This document shows positions 20,742 through 29,932 of a DNA stretch of 33,277 bases, piece by piece. Source of the DNA: a virus. Taxonomy: Duplodnaviria > Heunggongvirae > Uroviricota > Caudoviricetes. The notes below the pieces were generated by a model, which was not told where the DNA came from, did not search any database, and saw only the letters and a list, made by a program, of their open reading frames with translations. The stretch lies in the IMG/VR virus record IMGVR_UViG_2778261295_000004. One strand, 5' to 3'. Within the stretch, counting starts at the first letter, position 1. Every line of letters starts with the position of its first letter. The position numbers were made by a program, and so were the translations under genes.

Positions 20742-22508
20742 ATGAACACCACACTGACACCCGCAGATCTCGATCCCCGTCGGCAGGCCATGCTGCTGTA
20801 CTTTCAGGGATACCGCGTAGCCCGCATTGCTGAAATGCTGGGCGAGAAAGTTGCAACCGTTCACAGCTGGAAAAAACGCGACAAGTGGAGTGACTATGGG
20901 CCGCTGGATCAGATGCAGCTCACCACCGCCGCACGCTACTGCCAGCTCATTATGAAGGAGCACAAAGAAGGGAAAGATTTCAAAGAGATTGACCTGCTGG
21001 CGCGCCAGTCGGAGCGCCATGCGCGGATCGGCAAGTTTAACAATGGCGGCAACGAAGCCGACTTAAACCCTAACGTCGCCAACCGCAACAAAGGCCCGCG
21101 CCGTCAGCCGGAAAAGAACGTTTTCACCGATGAACAGATTGAGAAGCTGGAAGAAATCTTCCATTCCTCCATGTTCAACTACCAGCGCCACTGGTGGGAA
21201 GCCGGAAAAACCAACCGCATCCGCAACCTGCTGAAGTCACGCCAGATCGGCGCGACCTTCTATTTTGCCCGTGAAGCCCTGATTGACGCCCTGCTAACCG
21301 GGCGTAACCAGATTTTCCTTTCCGCCAGCAAGGCACAGGCCCACGTCTTTAAGCAGTACATCATCGACTTCGCCAAAGAAGTGGAGGTGGAGCTGAAAGG
21401 CGATCCGATGGTGCTTCCTAACGGGGCCACGCTGTACTTCCTCGGCACCAATGCCCGCACGGCCCAGAGTTACCACGGCAACCTGTATCTGGATGAATAT
21501 TTCTGGATACCGAAATTCCAGGAGCTGCGCAAAGTGGCTTCCGGTATGGCTATTCACAAGAAATGGCGACAGACCTATTTTTCCACGCCATCCAGTCTGA
21601 CACACAGTGCTTATCCGTTCTGGTCCGGTGCGCTGTTCAACCGTGGGCGCAACAAAGCCGATAAGGTGGACATCGACCTGTCCCACAGCAATCTGGCCCC
21701 CGGCCTGCTGTGCGCAGACGGGCAATACCGCCAGATAGTCACCGTGGAAGATGCGGTGCGCGGCGGCTGTAACCTGTTCGACCTTGACCAGTTGCGCATG
21801 GAGTACAGCCCGGACGAATACCAGAACCTGCTGATGTGCGAGTTTGTGGACGATCTCGCGTCCGTGTTTCCGCTCAGCGAGCTGCAGGCGTGCATGGTTG
21901 ACAGTTGGGAAGTCTGGACCGACTTTCATGCTCTGGCCCTGCGCCCGTTTGGCTGGCGCGAAGTGTGGATCGGTTATGACCCGGCAAAAGGTACGCAGAA
22001 CGGCGACAGCGCCGGATGCGTGGTGGTGGCACCGCCAGCCGTGCCTGGCGGTAAGTTTCGCATTCTTGAGCGTCACCAGTGGCGCGGGATGGACTTCCGC
22101 GCCCAGGCTGACGCCATCAAAAAACTGACCGAACAGTACAACGTGACCTATATCGGCATCGACTCGACAGGTGTCGGTCACGGTGTTTATGAGAACGTGA
22201 AAGCGTTCTTTCCTGCCGTCCGGGAGTTTGTCTACAACCCCAACGTTAAAAACGCCCTGGTACTCAAGGCCTACGACATTATCAGCCACCGCCGTCTGGA
22301 GTTTGACGCCGGGCATACCGACATCGCGCAGTCATTTATGGCAATCCGTCGCGCCACCACCGCCAGTGGCAACCGCCCGACCTATGAAGCCAGCCGCAGT
22401 GAAGAAGCCAGCCATGCCGATCTAGCCTGGGCAACAATGCACGCACTGTTTAACGAACCGCTGCAGGGCGAGTCCGCCAATACCAGCAATATTGTGGAGA
22501 TTTTTTGA
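20742..22508 (+). CDS. P: Terminase ATPase (large) subunit P
   Basis: 588-aa ORF divergent from O; ATG start; its stop overlaps the Q start (TGATG). Confidence 0.9.
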   Translation: MNTTLTPADLDPRRQAMLLYFQGYRVARIAEMLGEKVATVHSWKKRDKWSDYGPLDQMQLTTAARYCQLIMKEHKEGKDFKEIDLLARQSERHARIGKFNNGGNEADLNPNVANRNKGPRRQPEKNVFTDEQIEKLEEIFHSSMFNYQRHWWEAGKTNRIRNLLKSRQIGATFYFAREALIDALLTGRNQIFLSASKAQAHVFKQYIIDFAKEVEVELKGDPMVLPNGATLYFLGTNARTAQSYHGNLYLDEYFWIPKFQELRKVASGMAIHKKWRQTYFSTPSSLTHSAYPFWSGALFNRGRNKADKVDIDLSHSNLAPGLLCADGQYRQIVTVEDAVRGGCNLFDLDQLRMEYSPDEYQNLLMCEFVDDLASVFPLSELQACMVDSWEVWTDFHALALRPFGWREVWIGYDPAKGTQNGDSAGCVVVAPPAVPGGKFRILERHQWRGMDFRAQADAIKKLTEQYNVTYIGIDSTGVGHGVYENVKAFFPAVREFVYNPNVKNALVLKAYDIISHRRLEFDAGHTDIAQSFMAIRRATTASGNRPTYEASRSEEASHADLAWATMHALFNEPLQGESANTSNIVEIF

Positions 22509-23542
22509 TGGGAAAGAGTAAGAAGAACCGCGCTGCGTCGACGAACCAGATCCAGCATAAAAGCCAAACTTCAGCCGAAGCATTCAGCTTTGGCGATCCC
22601 GTTCCTGTTCTGGACCGCCGTGAACTGCTGGACTATGTGGAATGCGTACAGATGGATCGCTGGTATGAGCCGCCTGTGAGTTTCGACGGACTGGCGCGAA
22701 CCTTCCGCGCCGCCGTGCATCACAGCTCACCGATTGCGGTGAAATGCAACATTCTGACCAGCACCTACATCCCTCACCCGCTGCTCAGCCAGCAGGCTTT
22801 TTCACGTTTTGTGCAGGACTATCTGGTATTTGGTAACGCCTACCTGGAGAAACGCACGAACCGCTTCGGTGAAGTTATCACCCTTGAACCTGCGCTGGCA
22901 AAATACACCCGACGCGGTTTAGACCTGGATACCTACTGGTTTGTGCAATACGGCATGACCACGCAGCCGTATCAGTTCACGAAAGGCTGCATCTTTCATC
23001 TGATAGAACCGGACATCAACCAGGAGATCTACGGCCTGCCCGGTTATCTTTCTGCCATTCCGTCGGCCCTGCTCAACGAGTCCGCCACGCTGTTCCGCCG
23101 TAAATATTACATCAATGGCAGTCATGCTGGCTTCATCATGTATATGACCGATGCCGCGCAGAACCAGGAGGATGTGAACAACCTCCGCAACGCAATGAAA
23201 AGCGCCAAAGGTCCGGGTAACTTCCGCAATCTGTTTATGTACTCGCCTAATGGTAAAAAAGACGGACTTCAGATTATCCCGTTGTCAGAAGTCGCAGCGA
23301 AGGATGAATTTCTGAACATCAAGAACGTCAGCCGTGATGACATGATGGCGGCGCACCGCGTACCGCCCCAGATGATGGGAATTTTGCCGAATAATGTTGG
23401 GGGTTTTGGGGATGTGGAGAAGGCCAGTCGCGTATTTGTACGTAATGAATTAACGCCCTTGCAAAAAAGGCTACAAGAGCTGAACGACTGGCTGGGCGAA
23501 GAAGTGATTAAATTTACGCCCTATATTCTTTCAGAAGAATAA
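22508..23542 (+). CDS. Q: Portal (capsid vertex) protein Q
   Basis: Start refined to the ATG overlapping the P stop; the table ORF starts one codon earlier at TTG (22505). Confidence 0.9.
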   Translation: MGKSKKNRAASTNQIQHKSQTSAEAFSFGDPVPVLDRRELLDYVECVQMDRWYEPPVSFDGLARTFRAAVHHSSPIAVKCNILTSTYIPHPLLSQQAFSRFVQDYLVFGNAYLEKRTNRFGEVITLEPALAKYTRRGLDLDTYWFVQYGMTTQPYQFTKGCIFHLIEPDINQEIYGLPGYLSAIPSALLNESATLFRRKYYINGSHAGFIMYMTDAAQNQEDVNNLRNAMKSAKGPGNFRNLFMYSPNGKKDGLQIIPLSEVAAKDEFLNIKNVSRDDMMAAHRVPPQMMGILPNNVGGFGDVEKASRVFVRNELTPLQKRLQELNDWLGEEVIKFTPYILSEE

Positions 23543-23550
23543 TTCCGAAC

Positions 23551-24249
23551 TTATTTGTTTCTTCTTTGTTCACGCCTTGTCTTGGCTTCGATAAGGCGTT
23601 GAGGTTCAGTGTAAAGCCGTTCTAAAAAAAGATAGGTAAAATCTTCAAGATCCTCAGCAGCAGCTTTATCCAAAATACCTTCATGCGCGCCATCATTTCC
23701 GTCATCTTTAACGCATTCAGCTAGTTCCCTTAAAGCTTCAGGCAATAGATGATTATCAAATAACCAATCCATTCTTAACCCTAGGCTTCTCCTTATTTTT
23801 TGCGCAGGCCCTTGCTCCCCATCAGGAAGAAGTCCTTTTGTTGCATAATCAAGGCAAAGCCTAAACATGGTTGCTGCTGCATTATAACAACCAATAGCCA
23901 AACATTTCGCCCCTTCCTCATATGCACTATTGATATGCTCAGGTAAGAACTCTGGCGGCTCCTCTACTGCTAAGTCTGCCGGTGATATAGGCCTAACAAC
24001 CTCTGCAACTTCCTTTAAGCCGAATATTCCACTTTCCCAATTATAGCCATCTAAAGTTTTATTTTTCGTTAAAGGTCTGCAAAGAAACATTGTCGTTTTA
24101 TGACACTCTCGGCAAACACAATAGACCTCGTATTCGTATGTTTTACCCCCGCCCAATGCATTGTAAACCCTAGTGCAATTCAGCCCATTAACATCAAACG
24201 CTATTTTTTGTGATCCACATCGTGGACAGTCATCCACTAACATAACCAT
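23551..24249 (-). CDS. Cargo protein: N-terminal zinc ribbon plus C-terminal DUF4145/HEPN-like domain (candidate abortive-infection or defence effector)
   Basis: 232-aa ORF with strong GGGAGGAG Shine-Dalgarno; Cys motifs CPRC and CVCREC near the N-terminus; C-terminal ...LRELAECVKDDGNDGAHEG... resembles the GN-x-x-AH core of DUF4145 as I recall it; AT-rich compared with flanking phage genes. Confidence 0.55.
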   Translation of the reverse strand: MVMLVDDCPRCGSQKIAFDVNGLNCTRVYNALGGGKTYEYEVYCVCRECHKTTMFLCRPLTKNKTLDGYNWESGIFGLKEVAEVVRPISPADLAVEEPPEFLPEHINSAYEEGAKCLAIGCYNAAATMFRLCLDYATKGLLPDGEQGPAQKIRRSLGLRMDWLFDNHLLPEALRELAECVKDDGNDGAHEGILDKAAAEDLEDFTYLFLERLYTEPQRLIEAKTRREQRRNK

Positions 24250-24359
24250 GTCAATTGCTCCTCCCTATGAAAAAAATGAGTTGAAAAATTGAATATTCAC
24301 GACTTAAAAAGCTAGCCTATTTAACACCATAATTTCATTAATTCAACCATGAGCGCGCG

Positions 24360-24378
24360 CTCGTATCCCCGCCACGCC
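24360..24378 (-). other. Candidate cos cohesive-end core
   Basis: Minus strand reads GGCGTGGCGGGGATACGAG, matching in its first 13 nt my recollection of the 19-nt P2/186 cohesive end (GGCG(A/T)GGCGGGGAAAGCA...); adjacent perfect palindrome GAGCGCGCGCTC at 24351-24362. Confidence 0.4.
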
Positions 24379-24427
24379 TGCCCGCTTTGTGTAGTGGTTT
24401 TCATGCAGGTGCCTGATCCACGCAAAA

Positions 24428-24450
24428 GCCCGCCAGTTCTGGCGGGCCTT
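24428..24450 (-). terminator. Intrinsic terminator downstream of the 372-aa cargo gene
   Basis: gcccgccag / ctggcgggc stem followed on the minus strand by TTTTG; lies about 65 bp past the stop of the 24514..25632 gene. Confidence 0.5.
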
Positions 24451-24513
24451 AGCAAAAACGATCCTCAAACGGTCATGCAAATTCAGGCAGCATAGGCATG
24501 CACTGTTGTTAGG

Positions 24514-25632
24514 TTAGTTCGTAATGCCAATTTCCTTCAAAACTTTAGCCATTTCCGTCTGACTTAACTTGTTCCTGAACAAAGGGAAATTTTTCATTTT
24601 TTCCGCTCGTTGCCCTTTTGAAATAGTAATCTTTCCTGATGCTGATAACTCAGAGTCAAAAAAATAACATATTGTTGAATTTGAATTCTCCATATTTGAC
24701 TTGATACAATTCCATATGCTTTCTTTTTTCATTTCACACATTCTAGGACCAAAAATGATCCCTTTAACAACATTAGCATCATGATGAAAAATATGTCCAA
24801 TATTTCGATTTACGCGTCTTTGAACATGCCGCTCACTCCCTATTCCTGCATTTGCCTCTGGAATAAACATTCGATATTCAGCTTCATATCTCCAAAATCT
24901 ATTTTTAGTTAAAAATAACTCTGCAACATTTGCGCTTGGGTCTAGAAGTGAAACCTCTTTAGCCTGATTACTATATTTTATTTGCTTAACTGGAAAATTA
25001 AATTTATCTGATGAAAATAAATTTTCTCTTAGCTTCATTCCAGGATGTGGCACGCCATTAATATTAAAATCCTGCGTTTCATAAATCACAACACAACCAC
25101 TAAAGCCTGCAGCATAATGCGCCCACATCATACGATCTAACGCATTAGCTGAAAATGACACACTGAATACTGCAGGAACTATTTTCCTATACAACCTTTC
25201 TTTGATACTGTTCTCGCAAAGTGAGACCAAAAATTGGCGTGGTTCAGGAATATTCCCATAAATAGCGGAATTAATCACATTGATAGGTAGTAAACCATCA
25301 TTTATGATCTTACGTATCTCATCAACGTGTGAGTCAAACAGGCTATCTAATGACTCAATGCTACTTTTTATTTTTTTTCCTCTAAAAATACGATTCAATC
25401 CCTTATGTATCTTCAAATTACTCAAATCTAATATGTGACTCAAATTTTCATAGGATTTATCGCAAGGAGAACGCAATAAAATATCCCATAATTTCAATTT
25501 ATTATCAAAACGATAATCTATATTGAGATCATTAGGATCATTCAATTGCGCAGGAGCGGAAAAATATAATTCATTATAACGAATAGCTTTCTCGAAGAAG
25601 AAGTCCGGACGGTAATACTTGAAAAGATACAT
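24514..25632 (-). CDS. Cargo protein with DUF2971-like N-terminus (candidate anti-phage or abortive-infection protein, function unknown)
   Basis: 372-aa ORF, ATG start; N-terminal LFKYYRPDFFFEKAIRYNELYFSAPAQLNDPND resembles the DUF2971 signature as I recall it; strongly AT-rich and Asn/Lys/Ile/Phe-rich unlike the phage backbone. Confidence 0.55.
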   Translation of the reverse strand: MYLFKYYRPDFFFEKAIRYNELYFSAPAQLNDPNDLNIDYRFDNKLKLWDILLRSPCDKSYENLSHILDLSNLKIHKGLNRIFRGKKIKSSIESLDSLFDSHVDEIRKIINDGLLPINVINSAIYGNIPEPRQFLVSLCENSIKERLYRKIVPAVFSVSFSANALDRMMWAHYAAGFSGCVVIYETQDFNINGVPHPGMKLRENLFSSDKFNFPVKQIKYSNQAKEVSLLDPSANVAELFLTKNRFWRYEAEYRMFIPEANAGIGSERHVQRRVNRNIGHIFHHDANVVKGIIFGPRMCEMKKESIWNCIKSNMENSNSTICYFFDSELSASGKITISKGQRAEKMKNFPLFRNKLSQTEMAKVLKEIGITN

Positions 25633-26137
25633 GACATTACCTATAACATTGCAATATTAACAACCGTATGAAAACGGTTTGATTGTATTGATAATATCCT
25701 ATTCTGCATATACCACAGTGTAAAGATTAATTTTAAATACCATATCCAACAGTAAATCATGTATCGACCGCCAGATAAGAAGCTTTTGAAAAACTTGGAC
25801 AATAATTAATCAAAAGGTAAGAGATACTCTTCAAATACATGACGTTGGCTTCCTCTTTCGTGATAACTATCAAGACCAAGTCCATTAGATAATGGACATC
25901 AAATATTCCAAGTCAATCCAAGAACAATCATCATAAGCTCTTCCCATCCTGTATCCTCTATCTCACTCTTTTGGACATTGAAAGAAGCCCCTCTGACCGG
26001 GAATGATTGTTTCCAGCGTTTGACCACGATATACAATATGATATTTGATGTCTTTTGATCAGATGGCTAACGCCTCGCACAGCTCGTTGTTCAACCTTGC
26101 TGACGCCAGAAGCAAGTTCAGACGCCAGCAACGTTTC

Positions 26138-26371
26138 TTAATGCAGCCAGCTGTCGTCTTCCCACACCTTCTGCATAATTTTCATCACTTGTTTTCTTTC
26201 TTCGTCCAGTTGCAGTCCGGTCAGTTCCACACCGTTAGAGCTACCTTTGCGGATACGAATTACCGTTTTGGGATACAGGGGGCGCAGATTGCGGTAAAGC
26301 TCGGATTCAAGGGCGTCCAGGGTAGACTGGCTAATTTTCTGCTCTTTATCGATCATTATTTCAATGCGCAT
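26138..26371 (-). CDS. DinI-like SOS-response protein
   Basis: Start refined to internal ATG (MRIEIMIDKEQ...) with GAGGTG upstream; N-terminal MRIE... and C-terminal acidic W-containing tail resemble E. coli DinI. Confidence 0.8.
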   Translation of the reverse strand: MRIEIMIDKEQKISQSTLDALESELYRNLRPLYPKTVIRIRKGSSNGVELTGLQLDEERKQVMKIMQKVWEDDSWLH

Positions 26372-26381
26372 AAAAGTCACC

Positions 26382-26570
26382 TCAGCTGATGACATCCATT
26401 GAGCGGTTGTATTCGTGGCTTCTGATTTTTGCCATGAGTTCATCAGTCAATTCAGAAACCCACTGCAGAGCCAGCCCCTTCTCTTCATCACTACACTCAC
26501 TAGCCGCTACAAGCTTAAGAAAAAAATCAATGCGCTGGAGCTTCAAAGACTCCAAAAAATAGTCCTGCAT
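26382..26570 (-). CDS. Small protein (62 aa), first gene of the LexA-box operon; possible Tum-like antirepressor
   Basis: Internal ATG preceded by a perfect AGGAGG; the upstream part of the table ORF (to 26672) contains the LexA box and so is unlikely to be coding. Confidence 0.5.
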   Translation of the reverse strand: MQDYFLESLKLQRIDFFLKLVAASECSDEEKGLALQWVSELTDELMAKIRSHEYNRSMDVIS

Positions 26571-26611
26571 TTTTCCTCCTATGACACCACAAGCAATACT
26601 GTACACATAAC

Positions 26612-26631
26612 CACTGTTTATATTTACAGTA
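26612..26631. promoter_or_regulatory. LexA box (SOS operator)
   Basis: cactgtttatatttacagta fits the CTGT-N8-ACAG consensus with an AT-rich spacer; lies about 40 bp upstream of the small ORF start. Confidence 0.65.
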
Positions 26632-26723
26632 TATAATAATCTTACTGATGTAAAACGTTTTTTTACGTTCATCAGCCTGATATGCCTGGTATTATTAAGA
26701 GCACGAATTGTTAACCCGCGTAA

Positions 26724-29102
26724 TTAATACAGATCCCGCCACTTATCATCTTCCTGCAAACGCTGGTTCCGATAGAAGATACGCAGGCCTGCTCCTGACG
26801 GAATACTGCCGCCGCGAAGGAGTAAATCGACCTCTTTCTCGCTGCCATCAAATCCTCTGGACTTCAGTTCATAGACGAGCTGCTGTCGTTGATGGTCTGT
26901 AATTCGCTGTTTGTAGTCTCTACGCCGTTTCGGTTTCACCAGGCGTAACCTTGCAGCCAGTTCCCGGCGTTCTTTTTTGTTCATACTGTGCAGGTAATCG
27001 TGCAACTCCTTGTCATCCATACGGGTGATATCCGTTCTGGTATCCCCATCAGCTGATTTGTCTTTCCCTTGTTGGTACAAATTTTCAGCAAGGGGACAGT
27101 TATTGCCACGAGTCCGAGTCCAAGGGGCGCAAGCGCCCTGGTCGGCTGCCGCCTCCTGAACATCAACGGCCTTACGAACCATTTTCCACTTCACGGCATG
27201 AGTGCAGATCTTGCCCTCTGCAATAGGTGACCAGATGCCATAAATACGAATGCCGTGATCGCCATAGGCGGTCGGCTCTTCGTTGATTTCATAAGCGGTT
27301 CTGATGAGGTGATATTTGCGGGGAACCAGTACGCCGCCCTGCTTCATGATGTAGGTGGCAAAACAACCAGCATCAGCAGCAGCCAGGATGGCATCAAGGC
27401 GCGGGTTATCCAGTACCGGCGCACCTGCTTTTTTGTCCCCCTGTTGCCTTGCCGCCTGACCAGCCAGCAATCGCAGTTCACGGTAAGCCTGACGCCCCGG
27501 AATGCCAAAGAAGCGGAATTGCTGAACACGATGCAGAGACGCCCAGGCATTAACGTATTCAGCATTATCACGCAGGGATTTCCCCGTTTCCTTGCTGATC
27601 TCGCCAGCCAGACCACGCCCGTCAATGTTCTTACTGATGTATTTCGCGATGTAGCTTGTTGGCGTACCTTTGCGCGGGTTAATCAACTCAGACTTAAAGC
27701 GCGGCCCAGTGTTATTGCCCAGTTCCTCGCGGTCTTCACGGATGGCAAACTTACGCAGTAATGCAGTGATGGCGCGGCGGTCTTTTTTGCGCATAAAACA
27801 CAACAGGTGCCAGTGAACTGTACCGTCATGATGCGGCTCAGCCACCCGCACGCCATACCACCGCAATCCGGCTTTGTGCATCGCCTTACGAAATGCAGCA
27901 AACATGCCGACCAGATAATCACTGCTTTGTCTTACCGTCGCATTTGTCCAAGTTGGGTTGGGCCTGCCATTATTTAGCGTGGAATGGAAACGTGACGGAC
28001 AGGTGATGGTGTAGAAAACGGCGCAGTCACCGCGCATTTCCGCGATAAGCTCCAGGCCTTTAACACAGGCCATCATCTCATTGCGGCGATGCGCAGGGTT
28101 GCTGCTGCTGGCGTTTACCACATCCTCCATGTCCAGCGTGTCGCCGTCTTCGTTCACCAGTTCATGAGAACGAAAAAACTCCAGCGACTTACGGCGCTGC
28201 TCACGTTTATGCATCACGGCTTCATAGCTGACATAGGGAGATGCTTTTTTGCTGACCAGGCAGACAGCACGCAACTGCTCTTCCCGCCATTCGCAACGCA
28301 TCTTCCATAATTTCCGGTACCACCAGTCAGCGCACAACATACGCGCCAGCGAACCCGGAATGAGTTCATAGGGCACGGGTTTACGGCGGTTTCTTTTCCG
28401 GCGGAGTTGCTCAAACGCAGGCGGGATGACATCCAGACGCAGGGTTTCCGCTGCCACCTTTTCCCATGTCTTGCGGATTTCTTCTGGCTTAACGTCATCG
28501 GTGACATACAAATCGCCACAAGCTGCATCAAGGCACATGCTCATATGCGCAGCTACCAGGGTGGACAGGCGTTTCACCTGATCCTGACTCATTTCAGGCA
28601 GGATCAGCAGGCCGTCCAGCCCTTCATGGCTTGCCATAAAGCGAAAAGAAGTGGATAGCTGACAGTCGCGTACATGCTCCAGCCGTTCCAGACATGGCTT
28701 AATCGTCTCACGCAAATAGCGGGAATAAGCCTTTGGCCTGCCCAGGCTGCTGAAGTATTCAATACGTTGCATCAGTGGCTTGCTGATATGGGAAGGCTGG
28801 GCATTAACGTCCGCCAGAATGACCATATCTGGATTAAAACGCTGCTGCTCATGCGCCAGCTTTGCCCGACTAATGAGCTTATCCTGCTCCATTTCGCGCT
28901 GGACAGGATCACGGGATTCATTAAAGAAATAACGCTCCCAGACCTGATCACTCAGTGCCTCGCGGCGCAGCTGTTCCTGCTCGTTATCGGCAGCGTACAG
29001 AGCGATCAGGTTTGAAAGCGCAGAAACTGAAGATTGCTCTTCCGTCTCTACGTAAGGATTGATTGCTTTTTTCTCAGCATTCCAGGAATAGCTGTAGTTC
29101 AT
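26724..29102 (-). CDS. A: Replication initiation protein A (rolling-circle endonuclease)
   Basis: Large ORF containing ...[18 protein letters not shown]... and ...[12 protein letters not shown]... motifs typical of P2 gpA-family initiators. Start placed at ATG 29102 (GGAGA upstream, TAATG overlap with the upstream gene); table ORF extends to 29153. Confidence 0.9.
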
Positions 29103-29932
29103 TACGCAATCTCCAGTTCGAGCTGTGAAGGCTGCAAACCATTCGACAGCCAATCAGAAACTGAAGGTGGGCGAACAGCTTCAATTGCACCTTTTAAAAT
29201 TGCGCAACGGTTTTTCAGAATGACAGCTTTCAGCTCCTTTTCCGTCAGATTGCGCGAATACTCAGCCTCCTGAATAGCCCGCGTCAGCTCAGGATATTTG
29301 CTATTAAATTTGGGGACATTGCAGGCAAGATTTGTACTGTCGGCAGTCGCCAGTGGGTAATTTCCCAACACACGACCGTCAAGCATGCGCAAACCATGAA
29401 CAGCTGTTTTGAAATTGTGTCGGCAATAAATTGCTTCAAAAGCGTCCTGCATACGACGATGCCAGTGCGCAGTTCTGATAGCCGCATATTCACCAGACGA
29501 TCCAAAGCAGACACGAGGCCATTCACGACATAGCTCGATAAGCCGATCGATTGACTCGTGCAGATGCCAGACGGGAGTTGCCTTCCCGTAGAACATTTTC
29601 GGAACTTCGTTTATCAGGGCATCATTGTCACGTTCACCTCCGTCCACAACATCAGGAATGACAAAAAAAGCGACCTTAGGATGGTGGTAATAGTTCAGGA
29701 GCCATTTATAAAAATCACTCCAGTTAATTTTTAGCCCACGCACCCATGCAGAAAATGCGCCGTTATCAATGCCGACGACCTGAGCGTGCTGAATGGACGC
29801 CGCAATCTGATCTGGTCGTACATAGGAGACGAAAGCGCCAGCTCCGCTCACCGCAATACGATGAACGTCGCCAGCACTTCCCCAGACAGGCGTCCCATGG
29901 AAATGATGAATTCCGTGGTGCATTTCTTTCAC
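29102..29932 (-). CDS. Hypothetical protein between dam and A
   Basis: 276-aa ORF, GTG start overlapping the dam stop (alternative ATG at 29923); translationally coupled on both sides. Confidence 0.5.

Follow-up and report, generated by a model that had tools for sequence, protein, structure and literature searches.

Why should a compact prophage leave 505 bp without a long open reading frame (ORF) between a dinI-like gene and a DUF2971 gene? The interval occupies positions 25633-26137 of a 33,277-nucleotide stretch of viral DNA, the whole of which is called the window here. The original prediction proposed that it held the promoter and operator of the neighbouring cargo gene, a small RNA, or the decayed remnant of an earlier cargo gene. 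Our analysis indicates that the interval is very probably a composite of three pieces, namely a backbone spacer with a hairpin, a dead gene of the phage family phrog_2100, and the upstream region of the DUF2971 gene with its probable promoter.

The interval lies in the cargo hotspot of a P2-like prophage

The window is the sequence of a P2-like prophage (Peduoviridae) in reverse orientation (Table 1). Variable cargo stands between conserved gpA and portal flanks, as in the gpA-gpQ cargo (defence) hotspot of P2-like phages that was defined in PMC9122126 and is also described in PMC13586616, and near-identical prophages carry different cargo between gpA and gpQ. The identities first given to the genes on either side of the interval were confirmed by Pfam, the cargo gene matching DUF2971 at E=3e-4, just above the curated cut-off. 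The DUF2971 protein family is ART-like and comprises predicted DarT/AbiGi-like ADP-ribosyltransferases (PMC12522546), and the DUF2971 protein shares a domain relationship with the single-gene Aristaios defence system (PMC11381338). The cassette holds no intact antitoxin-like partner gene.

A second, separate cargo slot lies between the portal stop codon and cos and is occupied here by the DUF4145 gene, which has a weak PADLOC match to PD-T7-4 (E=1e-6). Three loci whose DinI-DUF2971 region is identical or near-identical to that of the window (L001, L002 and L003) carry AIPR, DUF262 or DprA-like genes in this slot. Since its contents vary while the DinI-DUF2971 region stays, the two slots swap independently.

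On the other side of the interval, a canonical LexA box (aCTGT-ttatattt-ACAGta, 26613-26631) coincides in part with a promoter-like region that stands, in minus-strand orientation, immediately upstream of the 62-aa ORF and the DinI-like gene. Its presence suggests an SOS-inducible prophage in which a LexA-controlled transcript has the interval at its 3' end.

The interval is AT-rich, as first described, with 37.8% GC compared to 51.6% for the whole window. The GC content is uneven, at 55.6% in 26066-26137, 37.5% in 25806-26064 and 30.6% in 25633-25805, and this was the first sign of a composite make-up. It is also true that the coding strand has no ORF of 60 codons or more. The longest mechanical ORFs on the minus strand encode 57, 53, 45 and 42 aa, none of which matched the PHROGs, and on either strand no frame runs without a stop for more than 63 codons, a maximum found on the plus strand. 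The interval had been thought long for such a phage, but the gaps between DinI and the first cargo gene in three other P2-like prophages are 159, 302 and 413 bp, and its length is not unusual for the cargo hotspot. A tandem repeat search of the interval found none, and a search for direct and inverted repeats found only short two-copy matches of chance size.

Table 1 Features of the interval and its surroundings, with window coordinates and the evidence for each. L010 is an IMG/VR locus with an intact phrog_2100 gene; L002 and L003 carry the sister haplotype.
Feature	Position	Strand	Evidence or remark
Portal gene gpQ	22505-23542	plus	
DUF4145 gene	23551-24249	minus	
cos region	~24250-24450		
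DUF2971 (ART-like) cargo gene, intact	24514-25632	minus	Pfam DUF2971; PADLOC PDC-S31 (E=3e-23); RefSeq annotation
DUF2971 upstream region, 30.6% GC	25633-25805	minus	Homologous 177-bp spacer in L010; segmental conservation
Leader	25633-25661		93% identity to L010
DUF2971 Shine-Dalgarno AGG	25639-25641	minus	6-7 nt before ATG (at 25632), in conserved leader
Palindrome AACCGT-ATGAAA-ACGGTT	25662-25679		30 nt upstream of DUF2971 ATG at 25632
Block with palindrome	25662-25689		71% identity to L010
Block with TTTACA-17-TAGGAT	25690-25729		87.5% identity to L010
Candidate sigma-70 promoter TTTACA-17-TAGGAT	25724-25696	minus	Consensus 9/12; hexamers identical in three haplotypes
Distal block	25730-25805		69% identity to L010
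phrog_2100 pseudogene	25806-26064	minus	tblastn, profile match, nucleotide alignments
Segment deleted in sister haplotype	25814-25934		Alignment with L002 and L003
Backbone spacer, 72 nt, GC 55.6%	26066-26137	minus	Directly after dinI stop; megablast/blastn and 16-version alignment
Relic Shine-Dalgarno GAGG	26073-26076	minus	8 nt before former start; invariant GCGAGGCGTTAGCyATG in gene-bearing loci
RNA hairpin	26097-26131	minus	Covariation, RNAalifold, folding energy
DinI-like gene, 77 aa in RefSeq	26138-26371	minus	Pfam DinI (E=6.6e-23); RefSeq annotation of identical locus
62-aa ORF	26570-26382	minus	Shine-Dalgarno AGGAGG; between DinI-like gene and gpA
Replication gene gpA	26724-29153	minus	

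Two haplotypes of the interval in E. coli

The 505-bp interval was compared by megablast with 5,426 complete E. coli genomes. E. coli ARL09/232 has an interval identical to that of the window. Nine genomes contained the full 505 bp at an identity of at least 99.8%, and a 384-bp form was found in 17 genomes among the matches listed, where this sister haplotype is thus commoner than that of the window. Any match at all was present in 513 genomes by megablast and in 656 by blastn, mostly to the last 72 bp alone (26066-26137). Alignment with L002 and L003 showed that the 384-bp form differs by a clean 121-bp deletion (25814-25934) between the short repeats ATCAAAAG and ATCATAAG, which are 8-bp near-repeats. 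The DUF2971 gene was intact and annotated in all loci inspected. As segment 25814-25934 is missing from the sister haplotype, it is dispensable. In two of the 17 listed carriers of the 384-bp form, the RefSeq annotation has a 49-aa hypothetical protein that spans the junction left by the deletion (L003 3625-3774, approximately window 25757-26027); this gene call is most likely spurious.

The middle of the interval matches a decayed phrog_2100 gene

Sensitive blastn aligned window 25905-26135, at 70% identity, with a region of phage Cartapus that comprises the spacer downstream of DinI and the 5' part of CARTA_46, an 86-aa hypothetical gene. The Klebsiella phage ST13-OXA48phi12.1 encodes an 85-aa homologue (QBP27628) in the same place after dinI, and CARTA_46 and the Klebsiella protein match the phrog_2100 profile at E=5e-40 and E=4e-35, respectively. 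A translated search for gene remnants, of the kind recommended with the original prediction, was positive: by tblastn, the window was matched by CARTA_46 at E=7e-16 and by the protein of L010, the closest intact relative, at E=9e-22, with an in-frame stop within the match. A conceptual translation of the window matched phrog_2100 at E=4.5e-15 over profile positions 3-58 of 85, and the homologous frame reads I-*-SKDIKYHIVYRGQTLETIIPGQRGFFQCPKE*DRGYRMGRAYDDCSWIDLEY..., each asterisk being a stop. Together, these sequence comparisons show the middle 259 bp to be a decayed copy of this 86-aa phage family.

In the L010 locus, DinI is followed by an intact phrog_2100 gene of 86 aa, a spacer of 177 bp and a DUF2971 gene that encodes 372 aa. 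The locus is about 80% identical to the window in nucleotide sequence over the whole stretch, and its DUF2971 is 81% identical in amino-acid sequence. One complete E. coli genome, NZ_LR882997.1, has the same intact arrangement, with the gene annotated. Position is equally consistent: in Cartapus, the Klebsiella phage, L010 and L011-L037 alike, phrog_2100 comes after dinI, separated from it by the same 72-73-nt spacer, and begins at the same place.

Lesions were listed from the pairwise alignment of the window with the intact L010 copy. There are six: one start loss (ATG>ATC at 26064-26062), two nonsense codons (GGG>TGA at codon 2 and TGC>TGA at codon 34) and three frameshifting indels (+1, -2 and -1). 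TAA, the stop codon of the former gene, is still present at 25808-25806, and the distance from start to stop is 259 nt compared to 261. The window copy lacks a start codon and an unbroken reading frame of about 85 codons and, given its family similarity, was filed as a pseudogene of phrog_2100. Over the first 58 codons, identity at the first, second and third codon positions is 0.82, 0.90 and 0.74; this is the pattern of a once-constrained gene and fits a fairly recent inactivation. The 121-bp deletion of the sister haplotype takes out the C-terminal half of the remnant and is a second erosion step. Sequencing errors are an unlikely source of the lesions because the full-length copies of nine independent complete genomes are at least 99.8% identical and the ATC-TGA start region is shared by every haplotype aligned. 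The pseudogene appears to have decayed in situ at the edge of the hotspot and not to be a scar left by recombination that exchanged one defence system for another.

One of the short two-copy matches, a perfect 12-nt inverted repeat (GACATCAAATAT at 25895-25906 and ATATTTGATGTC at 26041-26052), lies within the pseudogene and is absent from the intact L010 orthologue. It may be due to chance, or may have arisen by templated (quasi-palindrome) mutation as the DNA decayed.

phrog_2100 is a small accessory gene of temperate phages

Several kinds of temperate enterobacterial phage, among them P2-like, P22-like (where the gene lies in the non-essential ea region) and SSU5-like ones, encode members of phrog_2100. 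These are always annotated as "hypothetical", as are all 64 phrog_2100 clusters in a large protein database. Searches against Pfam, NCBIfam and PADLOC gave no match, and none of the matches to PDB sequences was significant (best E=0.2). A confident AlphaFold model (pLDDT 85.2) has four strands and one helix, and Foldseek found no match to it at E<=0.001 in the PDB or BFVD. Two identifications were rejected. The family does not detectably correspond to orf97 of phage 186, in which tblastn found no match, and a role as dedicated partner of DUF2971 is ruled out by its unrelated neighbours in Cartapus, the Klebsiella phage and P22-like phages.

The gene was also found independently disabled in many P2-like prophages (L006, L020-L028, L030, L033-L037). 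It has a stop at codon 15 in L020-L028 and frameshifts or stops in L034, L036 and L037, is truncated in L033 and L035, and is heavily decayed in L006. So many independent inactivations point to recurrent loss of a small accessory gene in the prophage state. The suggestion of a decayed earlier cargo gene was therefore right about the remnant, which is a multiply disabled phrog_2100 with intact orthologues in L010 and NZ_LR882997.1, and wrong about its nature: phrog_2100 is a small accessory gene, often beside dinI in P2-like phages, and not earlier defence cargo.

The DUF2971 upstream region contains a candidate promoter

For the upstream region, identity between the window and L010 was compared with a neutral level of 72%, which is their identity at third codon positions in both DinI and DUF2971. 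Two segments, the block with the promoter-like hexamers and the leader, lie above this level (Table 1). Taken with the consensus match, which has its -35 and -10 hexamers at a spacing within the 16-18 nt of sigma-70 promoters, this places the DUF2971 promoter, probably, at 25724-25696. The comparison of promoter and palindrome covers three haplotypes, and a search of genome contigs with the DUF2971 protein for more diverse upstream regions yielded no confirmed relatives. Promoter-like sites as such number 13 in the region compared to 8.9 +/- 3.2 expected, which is no enrichment over shuffles. The original proposal of a cargo promoter is thus plausible for the proximal ~100 bp, on the grounds of consensus and conservation, and does not extend to the rest of the interval.

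Two other candidates were rejected as functional. A promoter-like TTGACT-16-CATTAT (25916-25889) and a terminator-like hairpin (25897-25880) both lie within the 121 bp missing from the commoner haplotype and are neither palindromic nor conserved in L010. The DUF2971 cassette as a whole has 31-34% GC. H-NS binds the low-GC cargo of another P2-like prophage (bioRxiv 10.64898/2026.09.05.749240) and, by analogy, the AT-rich cargo region of the window is a plausible H-NS target.

Regulatory and coding alternatives

The palindrome for which an operator role had been suggested is indeed present (Table 1). We nevertheless consider it unlikely that the whole interval is a dedicated regulatory region of the cargo gene in which this palindrome serves as operator for a dimeric regulator. 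The 6+6 palindrome is perfect and stands between the candidate -10 element and the Shine-Dalgarno, with a promoter probably nearby, but 66% of dinucleotide-shuffled versions of the interval contain a perfect 6-bp inverted repeat whose loop is 3-10 nt long, and 41% of shuffles of the proximal 173 bp contain one of that size. The palindrome also differs in the three haplotypes. On the mRNA strand its arms read AACCGU/ACGGUU in the window, AACUGU/ACGGUU in the sister haplotype and AACUGU/UCAGUU in L010, with one arm base differing in the sister haplotype and two in L010. The G>A change at 25676 breaks the dyad as DNA in the commoner sister haplotype, while in L010 the closing pair is lost and a 4-nt insertion adjoins. 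Moreover, the surrounding block (25662-25689) diverges at the neutral rate, the cassette is without a regulator gene, and some 330 bp of the supposed regulatory region are already accounted for by the spacer and the pseudogene. The dyad was thus found to be neither beyond chance nor conserved among homologous loci; it is probably fortuitous and could amount to no more than a weak hairpin of the 5' leader.

A small RNA or cis-regulatory RNA is, in our view, very unlikely. Such an RNA could be, for example, an antitoxin-like element for the ART-like DUF2971, possibly derived from a transcript of the pseudogene. The interval is indeed a non-coding region upstream of a potentially toxic ART-like gene (PMC12522546), and the substitutions in the leader hairpin follow a C-G > U.G > U-A path on the mRNA strand, one pair being C-G in the window, U.G in L008 and U-A in L010. 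However, the leader fold has z-scores of -0.8 to +0.7, not significant compared to shuffles, and no credible terminator was seen. An Rfam 15 covariance-model scan of 23000-27500 on both strands gave no match at E<=1, and the interval has no tandem repeats. The commoner haplotype has also lost 121 bp of the pseudogene with DUF2971 still intact, and the distal part of the upstream region is at neutral divergence.

Continued function of the phrog_2100 remnant, by recoding, from internal starts or as an obligate DUF2971 partner, is scarcely credible. It adjoins DUF2971 in three haplotypes and retains the codon-position conservation of its first 58 codons, but that pattern is what a recently inactivated gene is expected to show. 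The remnant has six independent disabling lesions, among them the loss of its start codon, and a further 121-bp deletion in the sister lineage. Elsewhere the family adjoins unrelated cargo or stands in the ea region of P22-like phages, and it is independently disabled in many prophages.

It is just as hard to credit that a DUF2971 leader peptide is made from a small upstream ORF (39-53 codons, 25802/25760..25641, minus strand): the frame is open over the C-terminal ~25 codons common to the window and L010, but its starts and ends differ between haplotypes, the shared part has about 2 synonymous compared to 7 non-synonymous substitutions (manual alignment reading), there is no PHROG match and no convincing Shine-Dalgarno, and overlap with the conserved promoter block explains its preservation.

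A conserved spacer and hairpin at the dinI end

The 72 nt next to dinI, which were not remarked on in the original prediction, dominate the matches to the interval in the 513 (megablast) and 656 (blastn) E. coli genomes (query 434/435-505). Similarity between prophages ends at about 26066, some two bases short of the former start codon, in loci with and without a following phrog_2100. In an alignment of 16 distinct versions of the spacer, the blocks GGTTGAACAACGAG and GCGAGGCGTTAGC are invariant, the latter containing the GAGG Shine-Dalgarno. To judge from these alignments, 26066-26137 is backbone sequence and not cargo, with the invariant blocks marking the edge of the variable cargo region.

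In the dinI-sense transcript the spacer can form a hairpin of 14 bp in all (11 bp, one mismatch and 3 bp) with a 5-nt loop. Across the 16 versions, pairing is kept in 91% of cells compared to 30-58% for slid partners, and five pairs are changed on both sides in a compensatory manner. The covariation score is 0.275 compared to 0.176 in shuffles (reached in 0 of 500), a control that relatedness of the sequences can inflate. RNAalifold recovered the hairpin, and a 75-nt segment containing it has a minimum free energy of -26.4 kcal/mol. There are 21 G.U cells, and pairing falls to 83% if read on the other strand, a sign that the structure forms in dinI-sense RNA.

The hairpin is followed by the invariant GGUUGAACAACGAG and then by the ribosome-binding site of the next gene. 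It is a GC-rich stem-loop without a U-tract and therefore fails the definition of an intrinsic terminator; a terminator scan did not report it. It may act as a 3'-end stabiliser, a processing site, a weak terminator or an intercistronic structure of the LexA-controlled dinI operon. A more speculative idea, to which we give only tentative credence, is that the hairpin and the invariant blocks form an undescribed RNA element of the LexA-controlled operon in 186-type P2-like phages, perhaps for processing or insulation that uncouples SOS-induced transcription from the cargo. Conservation of the spacer reaches as far as the first cargo start codon, and for this reason the spacer could also be a homology anchor for the exchange of defence cassettes. 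Two further loci with different cargo, L038 (AAA ATPase and S8 peptidase) and L039 (SEFIR), share the sequence GTTAGCTCTGTrGTGCATGT immediately past the spacer, a possible sign of one more shared segment at this junction on the edge of the hotspot.

Discussion

The three pieces of the interval fit together as follows. The dinI stop codon is followed by the 72-nt backbone spacer, with a strong RNA hairpin that has been maintained in evolution and a ribosome-binding site for the gene after it. That gene, phrog_2100, survives as a dead copy, which the sister lineage erodes further by its 121-bp deletion. The last piece, ~173 bp of very AT-rich DNA, would have arrived together with the DUF2971 gene and would supply it with a candidate promoter (probably TTTACA-17-TAGGAT), a short leader and a Shine-Dalgarno. 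On this composite reading the apparent anomaly is removed: the long non-coding gap is a dead small gene plus an ordinary promoter region, and no new element needs to be proposed to explain it. The locus is also a well-resolved single case, in which intact ancestor-like, disabled and further-deleted states can all be compared. Two by-products are the recognition that phrog_2100, a small accessory gene in temperate phages of enterobacteria, is lost repeatedly after the phage has become a prophage, and that the dinI-side edge of the cargo hotspot is marked by a conserved hairpin and spacer.

The arrangement resembles the SOS (tum) operon of coliphage 186, so far as this is set out in PMC5322425 (citing Brumby et al. 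1996), in its LexA box CTGT-N8-ACAG, small ORF and DinI-like gene between gpA and cos. It differs in that phrog_2100 has no tblastn match there and is thus not detectably 186 orf97. We infer from the shared strand and the Shine-Dalgarno spacing that the remnant was a member of the SOS operon. The spacer hairpin shares with Rho-independent terminators and 3' stabilising stem-loops a strong GC-rich stem-loop right after a stop codon, here with compensatory changes, whereas it lacks the U-tract of the former and looks more intercistronic.

The remnant itself is like the phrog_2100 proteins CARTA_46 and QBP27628 in sequence, position after dinI, spacer, Shine-Dalgarno and start position, and unlike them in having no start codon, two nonsense codons and three frameshifts. 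Pseudogenes are widespread in such elements. In the survey of PMC13586616 (NAR 2026), 98% of P2-like prophages carry at least one, about half of them in defence loci; ~90% of the pseudogenes are small remnants between genes, and for most the similarity is to genes of unknown function. The window remnant goes beyond these in that it can be assigned to phrog_2100, has an intact orthologue in the same position and shows a second erosion step. It shares with the small intergenic pseudogenes of the gpA-gpQ hotspot the type of element, the hotspot, a remnant beside an intact defence-type gene and swapping cargo, and the interval is an ordinary instance of this documented class.
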